Positions 16,070 to 21,359 are shown, counted from the stretch's first letter. The stretch: 64,000 nucleotides of DNA from an uncultured Pseudomonadota bacterium (GCA_902784345.1 CACZUD010000002.1:158183-222182); one strand, 5' to 3'. The notes: generated by a model from the sequence alone, not told the origin. Made by a program: numbers and translations.

Positions 16070-16146
16070 TGGTTGCGGGAGATGGATTTGAACCACCGAC
16101 CTTCAGGTTATGAGCCTGACGAGCTACCGGACTGCTCTATCCCGCG
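16070..16146 (-). tRNA. initiator tRNA-fMet (anticodon CAT)
   Basis: Revcomp CGCGGGATAGAGCAGTCCGGTAGCTCGTCAGGCTCATAACCTGAAGGTCGGTGGTTCAAATCCATCTCCCGCAACCA; C1xA72 mismatch typical of initiator; perfect stems. Confidence 0.85.
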
Positions 16147-16198
16147 ATAAGCAAGGTTATTATATATCTTTAATCCTAAGAGTCAAATAAAAAACGTA

Positions 16199-16813
16199 CT
16201 AATCAAAACATTTTTTCAGTGTTTCGCCACTGTCATTCAAATCAACATGTTTGTTGCGGATTTCTTCATCTGCCCGTATTTGTTGTTTAAGTAAAACAAT
16301 ATCAGGATGATTTTGTAATTCATTATTTAATTTATCAATAGCAAATTCTATATCTTTTTCATTTTTTACGAATATCGGAACGATTGAATTTGCGGCATTT
16401 TGTACAGATTTTTTAAATAAATCTTTGTTGTCTTCTATAACAGATAAATAGGCCCTTATATGTTCGTCTTCATGTTGCAGTATCGCATTATAAGAACAAG
16501 AATTTGGTCTGTGAGATATATCTATTTGAACCAGAAAATCCGAATACCCTATCGTCGTATCTATATTTTTCAAAGACACACAAAAACCGTCTTCTATGGA
16601 AGTTATATCTGCTGTTATTTCAAATTCATCGACCAGTGTTGCTACTACATTTCCATGTAAAACATCCATTTTTTGTAATGGTTGAACAACACTTTTCGTC
16701 CAAACAGGCACATTTATTGTAACTTCAGGGTTTAATTTATAATTTAAACAATCGTCCCCCGCAAATGCATCTGAAATAAAAAACGATAAAAATATATAAA
16801 TAAATTTTTTCAT
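16199..16813 (-). CDS. secreted HExxH protein (DUF922-like putative Zn-dependent peptidase), paralog B
   Basis: Signal peptide; HEDEH motif; ~30% identical to the upstream paralog (shared C..YK.NP, G.C.SL..ID, SC.Y, PIF.K.EK, KLN blocks). Confidence 0.55.
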   Translation of the reverse strand: MKKFIYIFLSFFISDAFAGDDCLNYKLNPEVTINVPVWTKSVVQPLQKMDVLHGNVVATLVDEFEITADITSIEDGFCVSLKNIDTTIGYSDFLVQIDISHRPNSCSYNAILQHEDEHIRAYLSVIEDNKDLFKKSVQNAANSIVPIFVKNEKDIEFAIDKLNNELQNHPDIVLLKQQIRADEEIRNKHVDLNDSGETLKKCFD

Positions 16814-16815
16814 TT

Positions 16816-17454
16816 CTAATCTATAACTATATCAGAATTTTTCATTTTTTTATAAAAATCATCACATTTCCAAATATGATAGCTGTCGCCACGTTCATCT
16901 ATTTTTTTATTTTCCAATGTTAATTCTTCTACTATATCTGATTTAATTTTTTCAACAAAATCACTTTTATTTAATTTTTCAGAAAAATCAGGCACTTCTT
17001 TTTCAGATTTTATGAATATTGGTTTAAAATCTTTTGCGCCATCTTTCACAGATTTTTTTATCTTATCAAGATTAGATTTTATCACATTTTTATAAACATT
17101 TACATGATCTTGTTCATGTCTATAAACTATATCATACGCACAAGATTTTTCTTTTAATCTTTTATCTATTATAACATCAAAATCTTCAATAATTTCAATA
17201 TCAATACCACGCAAAGATGCACAATATCCGCCGTGTACAGGAATTATTACCGTATGCGCCATGGCACTGTACGACATCTTTGGTTCTGTATAACCCAACT
17301 TTCCAACCATTTCTTTATCTGATTTTTGAGTTTTAACATCTTTAATGTTTAATTTTATATCAACATCTGGATTATATTTATACTTTGAACAATCATATGC
17401 AAAAGACATATATGGTGAAAACACAAATAACAAAAAGATTATTTTCTTAAACAT
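16816..17454 (-). CDS. secreted HExxH protein (DUF922-like), paralog A
   Basis: Signal peptide MFKKIIFLLFVFSPYMSFA; HEQDH motif. Confidence 0.55.
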   Translation of the reverse strand: MFKKIIFLLFVFSPYMSFAYDCSKYKYNPDVDIKLNIKDVKTQKSDKEMVGKLGYTEPKMSYSAMAHTVIIPVHGGYCASLRGIDIEIIEDFDVIIDKRLKEKSCAYDIVYRHEQDHVNVYKNVIKSNLDKIKKSVKDGAKDFKPIFIKSEKEVPDFSEKLNKSDFVEKIKSDIVEELTLENKKIDERGDSYHIWKCDDFYKKMKNSDIVID

Positions 17455-18532: not shown

Positions 18533-18641
18533 TAAAAAACTCTTTTATTATTCCAACATAATTTAAGTATGGGAATAATTTTCTATAATATCAAGCAGAA
18601 AACCGCCAGTATAAAAAATTCACAGATGTCGGTAAGTTCTA

Positions 18642-21056
18642 TTACATTGTTTGCTTTTTTAAATATTCTGCAACAAAGTTATTTCCATATGTTTTATAAA
18701 GTTCTTCGGCCAATAATACAGATGAACGTCCGGATTCAAATAACTTTAACATATTTCCCAAACCACCCAATTCAGTATTTAAAATCACAGATTCCCCGTT
18801 AACAGGACGTGATAATAATACCGCACGTTTAAGATTTGGATATGCCTGACCTTTGATAAATGCCATTTCCAGTGGATTTAAATTCCATTTTTCATAATCA
18901 CTGGTATCTGCCGCAGGATTACGGAAGAATAATACAGTCTGTGCCTGACCACGAACAACATCACCTATCCCAAGTTTATCAAGAACATTTGCACGTTGGA
19001 AAGCAACCATATATGCCTGACGATTTTTACGACCTTCTTGAAGTCCGGCTATGAAATTATCGCGAAACATTTTATTTTCCAACATTGGTGCTGTTTCATC
19101 AATCATAATAAGTGAAGGATTTCCGCCGGATACAGTTACATTATTTATTCTGTGTAATATATAAGATATAACAGCCGGCGCCAATACTTCATCTTGCAAA
19201 ATTTCTGTAAAATCAAAAGTTGTTAAACGCGCACCTAAATCAAGAGTATCTGCTTCTTCATTAAATATGTCGCCATATTGTAATGGATCAACCCATTTCT
19301 TTAATTCGGCGCGCATCGGGCCACTGGATGAAAAACAGCTTTCATAAAGATTCTTTAATAACCTGTCTTTATCCTGCAGATAATCAAAGTTAACAGATAC
19401 AGCACGTGCAATTTCATCCATTGATTCTGCATCATTAATATTGGTTATCATTGAAAACCATCTGCGTAAAAATGCACGATTACTGCTACTATCTGGCATT
19501 TTCAGAGGATTCAAATGTGTTAAAAATGCGTCACTACTTGCATCTTTTTCTTTGCCATTCATTGTTATATATTTACCACCAACAGCCAGAGTAAATATTT
19601 CAGCCCCCTTGTTTCTGTCAAAGAAAAACGCTTTTAACTTTTGATAACGTAAAGATTGTGCAATAAGGAACGAGAACAAAGTCGTTTTACCACCACCAGT
19701 TGGACCTATGGTCAGGGTATGACCAACGGCTGCCGGTTTATCAGAAACATGAAATTGAAATTGATATGGTGTTCCTTGGGCTGTTGGGAAAACAACAATT
19801 GGACCCTGACCCCAATCACTGTCCTTAACACCAGTTGGCATAGATGACAACGGTATACTTGTTGCAGCCGTCTTTGATAACATTTTAAATATTCTTGGAA
19901 ATACATCAAATCCAGGTAATTGAGCAAAAAAGGACACTTTTGATGCAAAAGTTTCAACAACTGGTGATATACCAAATGAAGCAGATATTTTCTTAAATTC
20001 ATCAACATATTCATTTAATTCTTCTATACTTTTACCAAACAACATAAACAAAGGATAATAATCAACCAATGTTTGATTACCAGTTTGATTTTCATCCATT
20101 TGATTTTGTGCTTCACTTATTTGTTCAAGTGTAGATTCTTCTGTTTCATCGGTAATAGTTGAACGATGTTGACGCATCAGTGTTTCAATATCACTTGATT
20201 GTAAAATATGAAAAGCATTCATACATATCATTTCACATTGAATAGTTGAAACAGTATCAAAAAATTCTTCATCCATATAATCAGGCGATATTTTAAAAGA
20301 AAGTGCAGCAGCATAATATTTTTTATCACCACTGGTATATTCAATTACACCGTTTTTCATAAATTCAACATTATCAACACATACTAAATTTGATATATTT
20401 TCGTCACATTTTTTTATTATCGGCTTTGATACAGGTGACAAAATTCTACCAAAGAAAGTTGCCATATTATCGATATTATTATTTCTTAACAATATTGGTT
20501 TATATGCAGATAATATAGATTCAACATAATTACAACACTGATTTAATTTTTCACGATTATTTTGACCATGAACAGAAACAACAACATAATAATTATTAGA
20601 ATAAATCTTTAAACCTTGATTATTCCATTTATCATATATTTTCTGCAAAGTTGGCTGATCAAATTCATAATCTGTTTTTTGGTCTATGAAATCACGAATT
20701 GTAAAAAATCGCAGACAAACATCAGGATCTTGAATTTGATTAAATAATTGGGCACGCAAATCCAGCATTTTTTCACGATTTTTATCACTCATCATACTGG
20801 TTTGTACACCTTTTATTTTATAAACACGAACCAAAGATCCATCATCAATCGATAAACTGTCATCACTGTAAACGGCATTGAAAGGTAAATAATCGGAATA
20901 TTTTGTATAACCAAATTTTGGAAAAACTTTCTTTACAATTGTTGGTATATAAGCCAACAAAACCAAAAATACCAGAACAACAGACATTGCTATTATAACC
21001 AAAGTCAATGTCATAGAATCTGTATTTCCTGCAAAATAATTAAATAATCTTTCCAT
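18642..21056 (-). CDS. virB4: type IV secretion system ATPase VirB4/TrbE family
   Basis: 804 aa; N-terminal TM; Walker A TIGPTGGGKTT; CagE_TrbE_VirB-type C-terminal domain. Confidence 0.9.
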   Translation of the reverse strand: MERLFNYFAGNTDSMTLTLVIIAMSVVLVFLVLLAYIPTIVKKVFPKFGYTKYSDYLPFNAVYSDDSLSIDDGSLVRVYKIKGVQTSMMSDKNREKMLDLRAQLFNQIQDPDVCLRFFTIRDFIDQKTDYEFDQPTLQKIYDKWNNQGLKIYSNNYYVVVSVHGQNNREKLNQCCNYVESILSAYKPILLRNNNIDNMATFFGRILSPVSKPIIKKCDENISNLVCVDNVEFMKNGVIEYTSGDKKYYAAALSFKISPDYMDEEFFDTVSTIQCEMICMNAFHILQSSDIETLMRQHRSTITDETEESTLEQISEAQNQMDENQTGNQTLVDYYPLFMLFGKSIEELNEYVDEFKKISASFGISPVVETFASKVSFFAQLPGFDVFPRIFKMLSKTAATSIPLSSMPTGVKDSDWGQGPIVVFPTAQGTPYQFQFHVSDKPAAVGHTLTIGPTGGGKTTLFSFLIAQSLRYQKLKAFFFDRNKGAEIFTLAVGGKYITMNGKEKDASSDAFLTHLNPLKMPDSSSNRAFLRRWFSMITNINDAESMDEIARAVSVNFDYLQDKDRLLKNLYESCFSSSGPMRAELKKWVDPLQYGDIFNEEADTLDLGARLTTFDFTEILQDEVLAPAVISYILHRINNVTVSGGNPSLIMIDETAPMLENKMFRDNFIAGLQEGRKNRQAYMVAFQRANVLDKLGIGDVVRGQAQTVLFFRNPAADTSDYEKWNLNPLEMAFIKGQAYPNLKRAVLLSRPVNGESVILNTELGGLGNMLKLFESGRSSVLLAEELYKTYGNNFVAEYLKKQTM

Positions 21057-21059
21057 TTT

Positions 21060-21359
21060 TTACACTACTAATTTTCTTGGCACCCTATTTTTTATTATTC
21101 TTATACTTGAAAATATAGTTTGAGCGATTTGCGGATCTTGTTTTGAATAAAAAGCCAATATTGCATGACAAAGCGATAAAATACCCAAAAAAAACAAAGG
21201 TAACCACATCGGTATATTACGTGGCGGGATTATCAAAAAAAAGATTATTCCCGCTACAAAAACCAAGAACCAAATCAGGAAATTTAATATTGCAAGATTA
21301 TAAGGCACATAAAATATGCGCGGTGGGTTTGCCAAAGCTTTCAGAACTTTTTGCCTCAA
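21060..21359 (-). CDS. virB3: type IV secretion system protein VirB3
   Basis: 99 aa; LANPPRIFYVPYNLAILNF (VirB3 L..P....GVP......N motif) followed by two TM helices; 3 nt upstream of virB4. Confidence 0.75.
   Translation of the reverse strand: MRQKVLKALANPPRIFYVPYNLAILNFLIWFLVFVAGIIFFLIIPPRNIPMWLPLFFLGILSLCHAILAFYSKQDPQIAQTIFSSIRIIKNRVPRKLVV

Follow-up and report, generated by a model that had tools for sequence, protein, structure and literature searches.

A conserved virB3-virB4-HEx triad and a displaced GT10 gene in the gut alphaproteobacterium Candidatus Enterousia

How do two genes of a type IV secretion system (T4SS), virB3 and virB4, come to stand in one co-oriented row with a putative fucosyltransferase gene of family GT10, two genes for secreted HExxH proteins (here HExA and HExB, the HEx family) and an initiator tRNA gene, tRNA-fMet? 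This arrangement occupies positions 16070-21359 of a 64,000-nucleotide stretch of DNA from an uncultured Pseudomonadota bacterium (GCA_902784345.1 CACZUD010000002.1:158183-222182), the whole of which we call the window. An earlier note, made from the sequence alone, had proposed an acquired host-interaction cassette anchored at the tRNA. Here, we describe the region instead as a composite of parts with different ages, an explanation that, taken whole, we consider moderately probable; its structural and evolutionary parts, namely a core operon, a duplication giving HExA, a move of GT10 and an independent tRNA, are jointly held with high confidence. What is new is that a bacterium whose genome measures less than a megabase carries a virB3-virB4-zincin triad kept across its order, together with an undescribed HExxH family.

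The virB3-virB4-HEx triad and its descent

In every one of the 80 species-level loci (GTDB) with which the proteins of the window were compared, virB3-virB4 is followed directly by an ortholog of HExB. The gap between virB3 and virB4 is at most 3 nucleotides in most loci, and that between virB4 and the HEx gene at most 10 nucleotides in 64 of the 80, the window being exceptional with 1.19 kb. These loci, labelled L001, L002 and so on, were fetched with a flank of +/-10 kb around virB4 matches, the VirB4 homologs collected comprising about 80 species-level representatives at 71-92% identity. The triad is also present, with stop and start codons overlapping, in the outgroup L086, which has 55% GC (guanine plus cytosine) against 36% here and whose proteins are 59% (VirB4), 61% (TopA), 69% (YchF) and 34% (HExB) identical to those of the window; it is flanked there by tRNA-fMet-DUF374-lpxK-lpxC on one side and by mreC-PBP2-rodA-topA-dnaG-ychF on the other.

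Approximate ratios of nonsynonymous to synonymous substitution rates (dN/dS), computed against the three closest species, are 0.065-0.09 for VirB4, 0.10-0.14 for HExB and 0.14-0.24 for VirB3, with 0.09-0.12 for topA, 0.07-0.10 for dnaG and 0.06-0.08 for rodA nearby; HExA gives 0.19-0.38, and GT10, computed against L002, about 0.07 (0.069). Because purifying selection is as strong as on topA, dnaG and rodA, and because the order is kept in all 80 loci and in the outgroup, we read the triad as a vertically inherited core operon and not as cargo, and the low dN/dS together with invariant Walker motifs in VirB4 likewise argues for functional core genes that are neither relics nor recent cargo. By these comparisons virB3-virB4-HEx is evidently an old operon that has been passed on vertically within the Rs-D84/Enterousia lineage, and the tight spacing of its genes makes their co-transcription probable. 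Ancient conserved synteny in relatives is what the earlier note had itself said would speak against its cassette, and the virB3-virB4-HExxH order of the relatives largely amounts to that.

In the window, all genes of the block lie on a single strand, as the earlier note had said, which is the minus strand, and would be read in the order virB3, virB4, GT10, HExA, HExB, tRNA-Met(CAT):

21060-21359, minus strand: virB3, 99 amino acids, TTG start; PF05101, 26 bits against a cutoff of 23.9
18642-21056, minus strand: virB4 ATPase, 804 amino acids, N-terminal transmembrane segment; matches to PF03135, TIGR00929 and TrwK
18642-18684, minus strand: direct repeat copy 1, the native last 43 nucleotides of virB4, stop codon included
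17495-18532, minus strand: GT10-family glycosyltransferase, putative fucosyltransferase, 345 amino acids; PF00852
17459-17500, minus strand: second copy of the direct repeat, degenerate and derived from the virB4 3' end, which forms the GT10-HExA spacer and overlaps the last two GT10 codons
16816-17454, minus strand: HExA, 212 amino acids, signal-peptide-like N-terminus, HExxH motif HEQDH
16199-16813, minus strand: HExB, 204 amino acids, signal-peptide-like N-terminus, HExxH motif HEDEH
16159-16186, minus strand: promoter-like site just upstream of the tRNA, TTGACT, 16-nucleotide spacer, TATAAT, 11 of 12 matches
16070-16146, minus strand: initiator tRNA-fMet (CAT), called by ARAGORN and Rfam

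The spacers measure 3 nucleotides (virB3-virB4), 109 (virB4-GT10), 40 (GT10-HExA), 2 (HExA-HExB) and 52 (HExB-tRNA).

The two vir genes are those that the earlier note had recognised. VirB3 is a small protein with two transmembrane segments encoded directly upstream of virB4, with a marginal Pfam match and a constant position in all loci. VirB4 scores 62.7 bits against PF03135 (cutoff 21) in the Pfam scan and 402 bits (E 4e-120) against TIGR00929 of NCBIfam, yet below the curated cutoff of 643, as befits a divergent subfamily member; it also matches the solved R388 TrwK (PDB, E 7e-36). Its Walker A (GPTGGGKT) and Walker B (LIMIDET) motifs are intact and identical in 80/80 orthologs. Among NCBIfam models PRK13898 (246 bits) ranks above PRK13853 (177 bits), which are presumably the Rickettsiales-type and the Agrobacterium-type model, respectively. 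The closest plasmid VirB4s are 31-32% identical over 95% of the protein, scoring 403-421 bits against 181 bits for Agrobacterium, and sit in complete VirB2-B3-B4-B5-B6-B8-B9-B10-B11-D4 operons; the ancestry of the window VirB4 is evidently MPF-T-like. A candidate VirB2, a hydrophobic open reading frame (ORF) for 59 amino acids upstream of virB3 (21427-21606), was rejected: it has tblastn matches in 57 loci and is kept neither intact nor in a constant frame in relatives, so that we take the matches for conservation of DNA and not of a gene.

The homologs are labelled Candidatus Enterousia or uncultured Alphaproteobacteria and come from the rumen or from the guts of goats, sheep, yaks, horses, chickens and humans; the window itself is from Candidatus Enterousia, a gut or rumen alphaproteobacterium of the order Rs-D84. 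Enterousia is widespread in ruminant, horse, chicken and human guts. Its genomes measure 0.75-1.0 Mb, are without most pathways of biosynthesis and respiration, and are predicted to make their bearers dependent on partners (PMC12306168); with genomes of this size, the window is about 7% of one. In the literature searched we found no paper tying Rs-D84 to a T4SS. One related contig, L069 (CAVGNU010000002.1), is deposited as Bacteroides fragilis and carries rodA-topA-dnaG, ychF and virB3-virB4-HEx, the Enterousia-type order, with a VirB4 73% identical to that of the window; it is probably mis-binned or contaminating in its assembly.

A family of secreted HExxH proteins

HExA and HExB are two tandem secreted HExxH paralogs, as the earlier note had it, with signal-peptide-like segments that end in an A-x-A-type site. 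They are 31% identical, and HExA retains the four invariant cysteines and the H-E-H residues; being present in six of the 80 related loci, it is evidently a lineage-specific tandem duplicate. The H-E-x-x-H motif, which in a structure model of HExB lies in the helix 106-128, is kept in 85/85 close homologs and in all 44 distant ones. All members compared, whether close, distant or marine, share four cysteines, the H-E-x-x-H motif and one aspartate in an N-x-x-I-D context; in HExB the motif residues and the aspartate are H114, E115, H118 and D191, and D191 is likely to be the third metal ligand. The pattern is what one would expect if HExB is a Sec-exported, disulfide-bonded metalloenzyme, its four cysteines being consistent with two disulfides.

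To which family these proteins belong is less easily said, as no Pfam or NCBIfam model matched HExA or HExB at E <= 0.1. The label 'DUF922-like', given to them in the earlier note, was not borne out: at that threshold DUF922 (PF06037) is not matched, and a single one of the 44 distant homologs touches it, at E = 0.0048, which leaves room for a remote relationship of the family. An identity with VirB5 was considered on account of position, HExB occupying the VirB5 place of the closest complete systems, and was rejected: neither homology nor fold similarity to VirB5/TraC was found, and the gene after VirB4 in the closest plasmids encodes a helical, glutamine-rich, VirB5-like protein without HExxH. 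A profile search with HEx gathered some 740 close proteins, in none of which a Pfam domain is recognised, and an exhaustive search with a hidden Markov model put the family at 763 clusters at 50% identity. It has no Pfam model and, in a fold search of the PDB, no solved structural relative, and we predict that HEx is a new periplasmic zincin-like family.

Distant members occur in three contexts. Some stand alone among housekeeping genes. In two clusters from a single alphaproteobacterial lineage the HEx gene begins before a gene for the lytic transglycosylase MltA has ended, overlapping its stop codon. In the third context, found in marine GC-rich bacteria by a search of metagenomes with a profile built from a 6-member marine subgroup of the distant HEx alignment, the HEx gene overlaps, in most of eight loci, the stop codon of a gene for a class III nucleotide cyclase of about 720 amino acids, and an SLT transglycosylase gene lies two genes upstream in seven of the eight. 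This suggests that the family can partner with periplasm-sensing cyclases, and taken together the contexts make it look like a family of periplasmic proteins that pair with various inner-membrane machines and are repeatedly linked to the cell wall.

As to the loci themselves, those linked to MltA are L095-L097, from an alphaproteobacterial lineage other than that of the window, with the order SecB-Tim44-MltA-HEx in L096 and L097. The marine contigs are L101, L104-L107, L109, L111 and L116; the cyclase is the sole recognised domain of the protein of about 720 amino acids, and a second type of marine context has a GAF-PAS-cyclase gene two genes downstream of HEx.

GT10, the variable interval and the initiator tRNA

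The gene that separates virB4 from the HEx genes in the window had been described as a eukaryote-like alpha-1,3-fucosyltransferase. Its GT10 membership stands: it scores 34.8 bits against PF00852 (cutoff 23.9) and matches the PDB fucosyltransferases 9s6a, 7yro and 2nzw weakly (E 1e-5 to 1e-3), and the segment aligned to a solved fucosyltransferase reads FCICLEN(x5)Y(x)SE, presumably the conserved GT10 acceptor/donor motif. The eukaryotic likeness does not. PF00852 is carried by most of 120 GT10 homologs among the matches listed. The closest GT10 homologs (74-81% identity) are the last genes of GT2-GT2-GT2-GT10 operons on other low-GC gut contigs, and the next relatives with a source name are Helicobacter spp. 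(56-62%) and metagenome-assembled genomes of unclassified gut 'bacterium' (55-57%), most of the matches listed being unnamed. On these homologs the gene belongs to a bacterial clade and is not specifically eukaryote-like. Genes for GDP-fucose synthesis were not seen in the 64-kb window.

Among 81 loci GT10 is found only in L001 and L002. L001, a contig of 4.4 kb, belongs to another assembly of the same sequence and has proteins 99-100% identical to those of the window; since it repeats the gene arrangement, an assembly artefact is argued against. L002 is the single other species with the gene (one of 80 loci), and in it GT10 follows HExB. Alignment of DNA shows where the segment entered: virB3-virB4 aligns with L002, L005 and L030 as far as the virB4 stop codon, the GT10 segment with about 70 nucleotides upstream aligns to a stretch of L002 just downstream of HExB, and HExA-HExB aligns with L030 from inside the 3' end of the L030 virB4. 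On either side of GT10 lie the two repeat copies, identical in 39 of 43 alignment columns with one gap of a single nucleotide (local alignment of 18642-18684 with 17459-17500), and the virB4 relic ends 4 nucleotides before the HExA ATG, much like the tight virB4-HEx junction in L030. The repeat and the position of this junction imply that the ancestral virB4-HEx junction was duplicated when a GT10 segment of 1.14 kb came between. By these alignments GT10 is evidently an accessory surface-glycan gene of the neighbouring hypervariable region that moved recently into the virB4-HEx junction, leaving a 43-nucleotide scar; together with the hotspot found there in relatives, this is what remains of the earlier idea.

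That region is the interval between HExB and the tRNA, which is 52 bp and empty in the window and in relatives measures anything between roughly 30 bp and over 9 kb, with highly variable content. Clustering of its ORFs, combined with Pfam, gave clusters that resemble rmlA, rmlB, rmlC and rmlD in Pfam family and in size in 9-15 loci, glycosyltransferases of GT1, GT2 and GT4, Stealth capsule transferases and acetyltransferases, and also small outer-membrane beta-barrel proteins, lipocalins, LrgAB, an ABC-F ATPase, RhuM and a SocA-type antitoxin. In six loci, L076 (19154-20335) among them, the interval holds tyrosine integrases of the P4 type, with a Phage_integrase and an Arm DNA-binding domain, and in such genomes the side of the tRNA-fMet may be a site of island integration. 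Judged by this content the interval is a hotspot for surface-glycan and accessory genes bounded by the triad and by the tRNA/lpx block, and GT10 appears as its sole remaining representative in the window, displaced into the operon.

The tRNA is an initiator, as had been claimed, by its CAT anticodon, C1:A72 and A11:U24 as read from the sequence; in the anticodon stem two of three pairs are G-C and 29-41 is A-U. Its supposed role as an anchor finds no support. The same initiator tRNA stands in 43 related loci and in L086, beside DUF374-lpxK-lpxC wherever the fetched stretch includes those genes (for the remaining loci the tRNA was not in that stretch). Most species have it on the other strand from virB4 and DUF374; it is co-oriented in the window, L002, L005, L025 and L037. 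Its sequence is identical or nearly so to that of the close relatives L006, L021 and L030; that it is near-identical and yet inverted in most close relatives indicates local inversions at the boundary of the variable interval. The promoter-like site upstream of it is a consensus match only, the regional total of such sites being no higher than in shuffles, and a hairpin with a T-run after the tRNA was seen by eye and was not called by the scan. We conclude from its constant neighbours that tRNA-fMet is a conserved lpx neighbour, probably transcribed independently, at the far edge of the hypervariable region.

Composition does not set the block apart either, although a deviation from the flanking lpx genes had been named as something to look for. 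The GC content of its genes is 0.26-0.33, the mean over 27 window genes being 0.35 (sd 0.044), and the neighbouring core genes lie in the same range (lpxC 0.316, dnaG 0.324, a SufBD-like gene 0.291); both GC and GC at third codon positions lie among the lower values of the window and overlap the flanking core genes, so that there is no compositional signal of transfer.

Other genes of the window recognised by Pfam are gyrB, lpxC, lpxK, dnaG, topA, rodA, PBP2, mreB, mreC, mutS and aminoacyl-tRNA synthetases. The 473-nucleotide gap upstream of virB3 holds a bL36 (rpmJ-like) ribosomal protein gene of 44 codons at 21674-21808 (plus strand; MKFLSSLKAWKKRGNIKQIRRGKQVLLIDPSNPKLKAKQGFKKK), kept in 76 related loci. 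Beyond it, at 21833-22525 (minus strand), a solitary protein of 230 amino acids matches the SufB/SufD core weakly (22.7 bits, under the cutoff); its gene lies between ychF and virB3 in most species, evolves fast, with a dN/dS of 0.19-0.40, and adjoins neither sufB nor sufC. At 40146-42088 (plus strand) a protein of 337 amino acids without a Pfam match is followed, stop and start codons overlapping, by a trypsin-like serine protease of 310 amino acids; the two may be a further pair of secreted or envelope proteins. At 3142-3717 (plus strand) lies a gene for a PagL-like lipid A 3-O-deacylase, which, with lpxC, lpxK and the DUF374 acyltransferase, indicates that lipid A is retained and modified despite genome reduction.

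Possible function, rival readings and known systems

The earlier note had also remarked that the rest of the T4SS is missing nearby, and so it proved: virB6, B8, B9, B10, B11 and D4 were found neither in the 64-kb window, by Pfam over essentially all long ORFs and by tblastn with a complete plasmid T4SS, nor, when VirB2-D4 of the two closest plasmid systems served as tblastn queries, in the +/-10 kb around 82 related loci. The latter searches matched VirB4 and, with VirB11 as query, the Walker region of a T2SSE pilus-type ATPase. Nor did Pfam find T4SS families among 135 cluster representatives of the variable interval and 20 selected large ORFs; the genes recognised were glycan, housekeeping, integrase and other accessory genes, in a census that lists the 25 most frequent families and may therefore miss rare singletons. 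A complete MPF-T system is thus not encoded at the locus, where VirB6, B8-B11 and VirD4 do not accompany VirB4.

A T2SSE ATPase is also part of a type IVb-pilus-like cluster at 8339-13377 (minus strand), directly downstream of lpxC and about 3 kb downstream of the block, which encodes a lipoprotein of 104 amino acids, a PilO-like protein (PF06864, 452 amino acids), a protein of 222 amino acids of no assigned kind, T2SSE (539 amino acids) and T2SSF (356 amino acids). No secretin was recognised in the cluster. The order is kept downstream of lpxC in related loci whose stretch reaches that far and was not found next to the triad in L086, and the published description of Enterousia does not mention pili for the lineage.

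As a working model, VirB3 and VirB4 would form an inner-membrane ATPase unit that energises an MPF-T-derived, T4SS-like envelope machine, the other channel genes being either scattered elsewhere, as in the rvh system of Rickettsiales, or lost. HExB would be a periplasmic metallohydrolase serving this machine, preferably in the local opening or remodelling of the cell wall or envelope in the manner of VirB1, alternatively in the maturation of a secreted or pilus component. That HExB is the machine's periplasmic hydrolase is a tentative proposal, to which we give rather less than an even chance. Several points weigh against the explanation as a whole: the HEx family is not specific to T4SSs, its distant members standing alone or after a class III nucleotide cyclase; the MltA link is confined to two clusters of one alphaproteobacterial lineage; adjacency is the sole tie between HExB and VirB4, and co-transcription is read from gene spacing; the dN/dS ratios are approximate because dS is partly saturated (0.55-1.4); and the search for vir genes covered locus neighbourhoods, 1.63 Mb of Enterousia-clade sequence or about 7% of the genome per species.

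Against the model stand four rival accounts, two of which concern the origin of the genes. That the whole block from virB3 to the tRNA arrived by horizontal transfer as a single host-interaction cassette, with tRNA-fMet as its integration site, could draw on the plasticity of the interval beside the tRNA, with P4-type integrases in six loci, on the patchy distribution of GT10 and on genes slightly richer in AT than the window mean. We nevertheless regard it as very improbable, because the triad occurs in 80/80 species and in a 55%-GC outgroup with a divergence like that of neighbouring housekeeping genes and only GT10 among the block genes is patchily distributed, because the window has neither an integrase nor a repeat of the tRNA 3' end and a GC content within the flanking core range, and because the position and orientation of the tRNA follow the lpx genes and not virB. 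Still more improbable, to our mind, is a decaying relic, in which virB3-virB4 would be the non-functional remnant of a degraded conjugative element. The isolation of the pair from other vir genes and the TIGR00929 score of 402 below the curated 643 would fit decay, but the ORFs are intact in 80/80 species, the dN/dS of VirB4 is about 0.07-0.09, its Walker A and B motifs are invariant and it is at least as well conserved as topA and dnaG.

The other two accounts concern function. An autonomous minimal module, in which the channel genes are lost and VirB3-VirB4-HExB works without VirB6 and VirB8-11/D4, either as a membrane ATPase exapted for another envelope process or together with the nearby type IVb-pilus-like genes, is a possibility that we think unlikely without dismissing it. 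We know of no VirB4 that works without a channel, which counts against such a module. It would accord with the absence of other vir homologs from the window and from the clade sequence around the locus, with genomes below 1 Mb (PMC12306168), with the presence of the PilO-like/T2SSE/T2SSF cluster 3 kb downstream, also in the fetched stretch of many relatives, and with the relaxase-less chromosomal T4SSs of Patescibacteria, which are thought to be repurposed (PMC12102498); however, the sampled sequence comes from one neighbourhood of each genome, the pilus-like cluster is not beside the triad in L086, and scattered T4SS islets have a precedent in Rickettsiales (PMC2653234). We consider it equally doubtful that HExB has no functional relation to the T4SS and is an envelope housekeeping enzyme that shares a transcript through operon compaction in a reduced genome. 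The family does occur without VirB4 elsewhere, alone, after MltA or after nucleotide cyclases, and the neighbours lpx, mre and PBP2 are envelope housekeeping genes, but the adjacency has outlasted local rearrangement, a shift from 36% to 55% GC and divergence to 34% HExB identity, and HExA kept the virB4 3' end with it through the insertion of GT10.

With a conservation as strict as that of topoisomerase I and an HExxH gene coupled to it throughout, the VirB3-VirB4 pair is a candidate for the machinery by which Enterousia interacts with partners, a parallel to the chromosomal T4SS reported as essential for epibiotic growth in the patescibacterial class Saccharimonadia (PMC12102498). More speculatively, and in our view rather improbably, the T4SS of Enterousia and its Rs-D84 relatives may have been reduced to a core of VirB3, VirB4 and a periplasmic zincin recruited in the lineage, one that would do without VirB6 and VirB8-11/D4, perhaps with the help of the neighbouring secretin-less pilus-like genes, and would serve the partner-dependent lifestyle; if true, this three-gene core would be the smallest T4SS-derived machine known. 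The hypervariable glycan region and the moved GT10 suggest that a fucosylated surface glycan of this gut symbiont varies between strains, and for annotation the locus carries the lesson that a gene block adjoining a tRNA is not necessarily an island.

Of the systems already described, the rvh T4SS of Rickettsiales is an 'archipelago' of scattered islets that include virB3-virB4-virB6 paralogs (Gillespie et al. 2009, PMC2653234). Like it, the Enterousia pair is chromosomal and vertically inherited in a reduced alphaproteobacterial genome, stands apart from other vir genes and has no VirB5. Unlike it, a secreted HExxH protein and not virB6 paralogs follows virB4; the other islets are so far known only for rvh, and Enterousia is a gut lineage of a separate order, Rs-D84, and is not known to be intracellular. 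Patescibacteria likewise keep a core signature ATPase in ultra-small, partner-dependent bacteria, with a chromosomal T4SS that lacks a relaxase (PMC12102498); theirs is MPF-FATA, in monoderm cells and with further components beside virB4, whereas Enterousia is diderm and its VirB4, which is MPF-T-like, has no such components beside it.

Of the plasmids in the collection, those whose VirB4 is most closely related are alphaproteobacterial megaplasmids with conjugative MPF-T operons (Erythrobacter aureus NZ_CP031358 and Microvirga pMVF16-3). These operons share the local order VirB3-VirB4-(small secreted protein) but are complete, with VirB2, B5, B6, B8-B11, D4 and a MobA/MobL relaxase, and their protein after VirB4 is helical and VirB5-like, without the HExxH or the cysteine pattern of HExB. 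In its proposed role as a Sec-exported periplasmic hydrolase encoded with a T4SS core, HExB would resemble VirB1-type hydrolases, a likeness to which the translational coupling of its relatives to MltA in another lineage adds; VirB1, however, is an SLT-family lytic transglycosylase, and the motif and putative fold of HExB are unrelated to it and zincin-like, with an activity that is predicted only. The nearest kind would be small zincins and HExxH metallopeptidases such as proabylysin (4jiu), CBASS CapP (7t5t) and TTHA0227 (2ejq, deposited as a conserved hypothetical protein). GT10, finally, shares its domain with the bacterial alpha-1,3/4-fucosyltransferases exemplified by Helicobacter pylori FucT (2nzw), but, where its close homologs sit in operons of several glycosyltransferases, it is solitary, of putative specificity and wedged into a T4SS operon.

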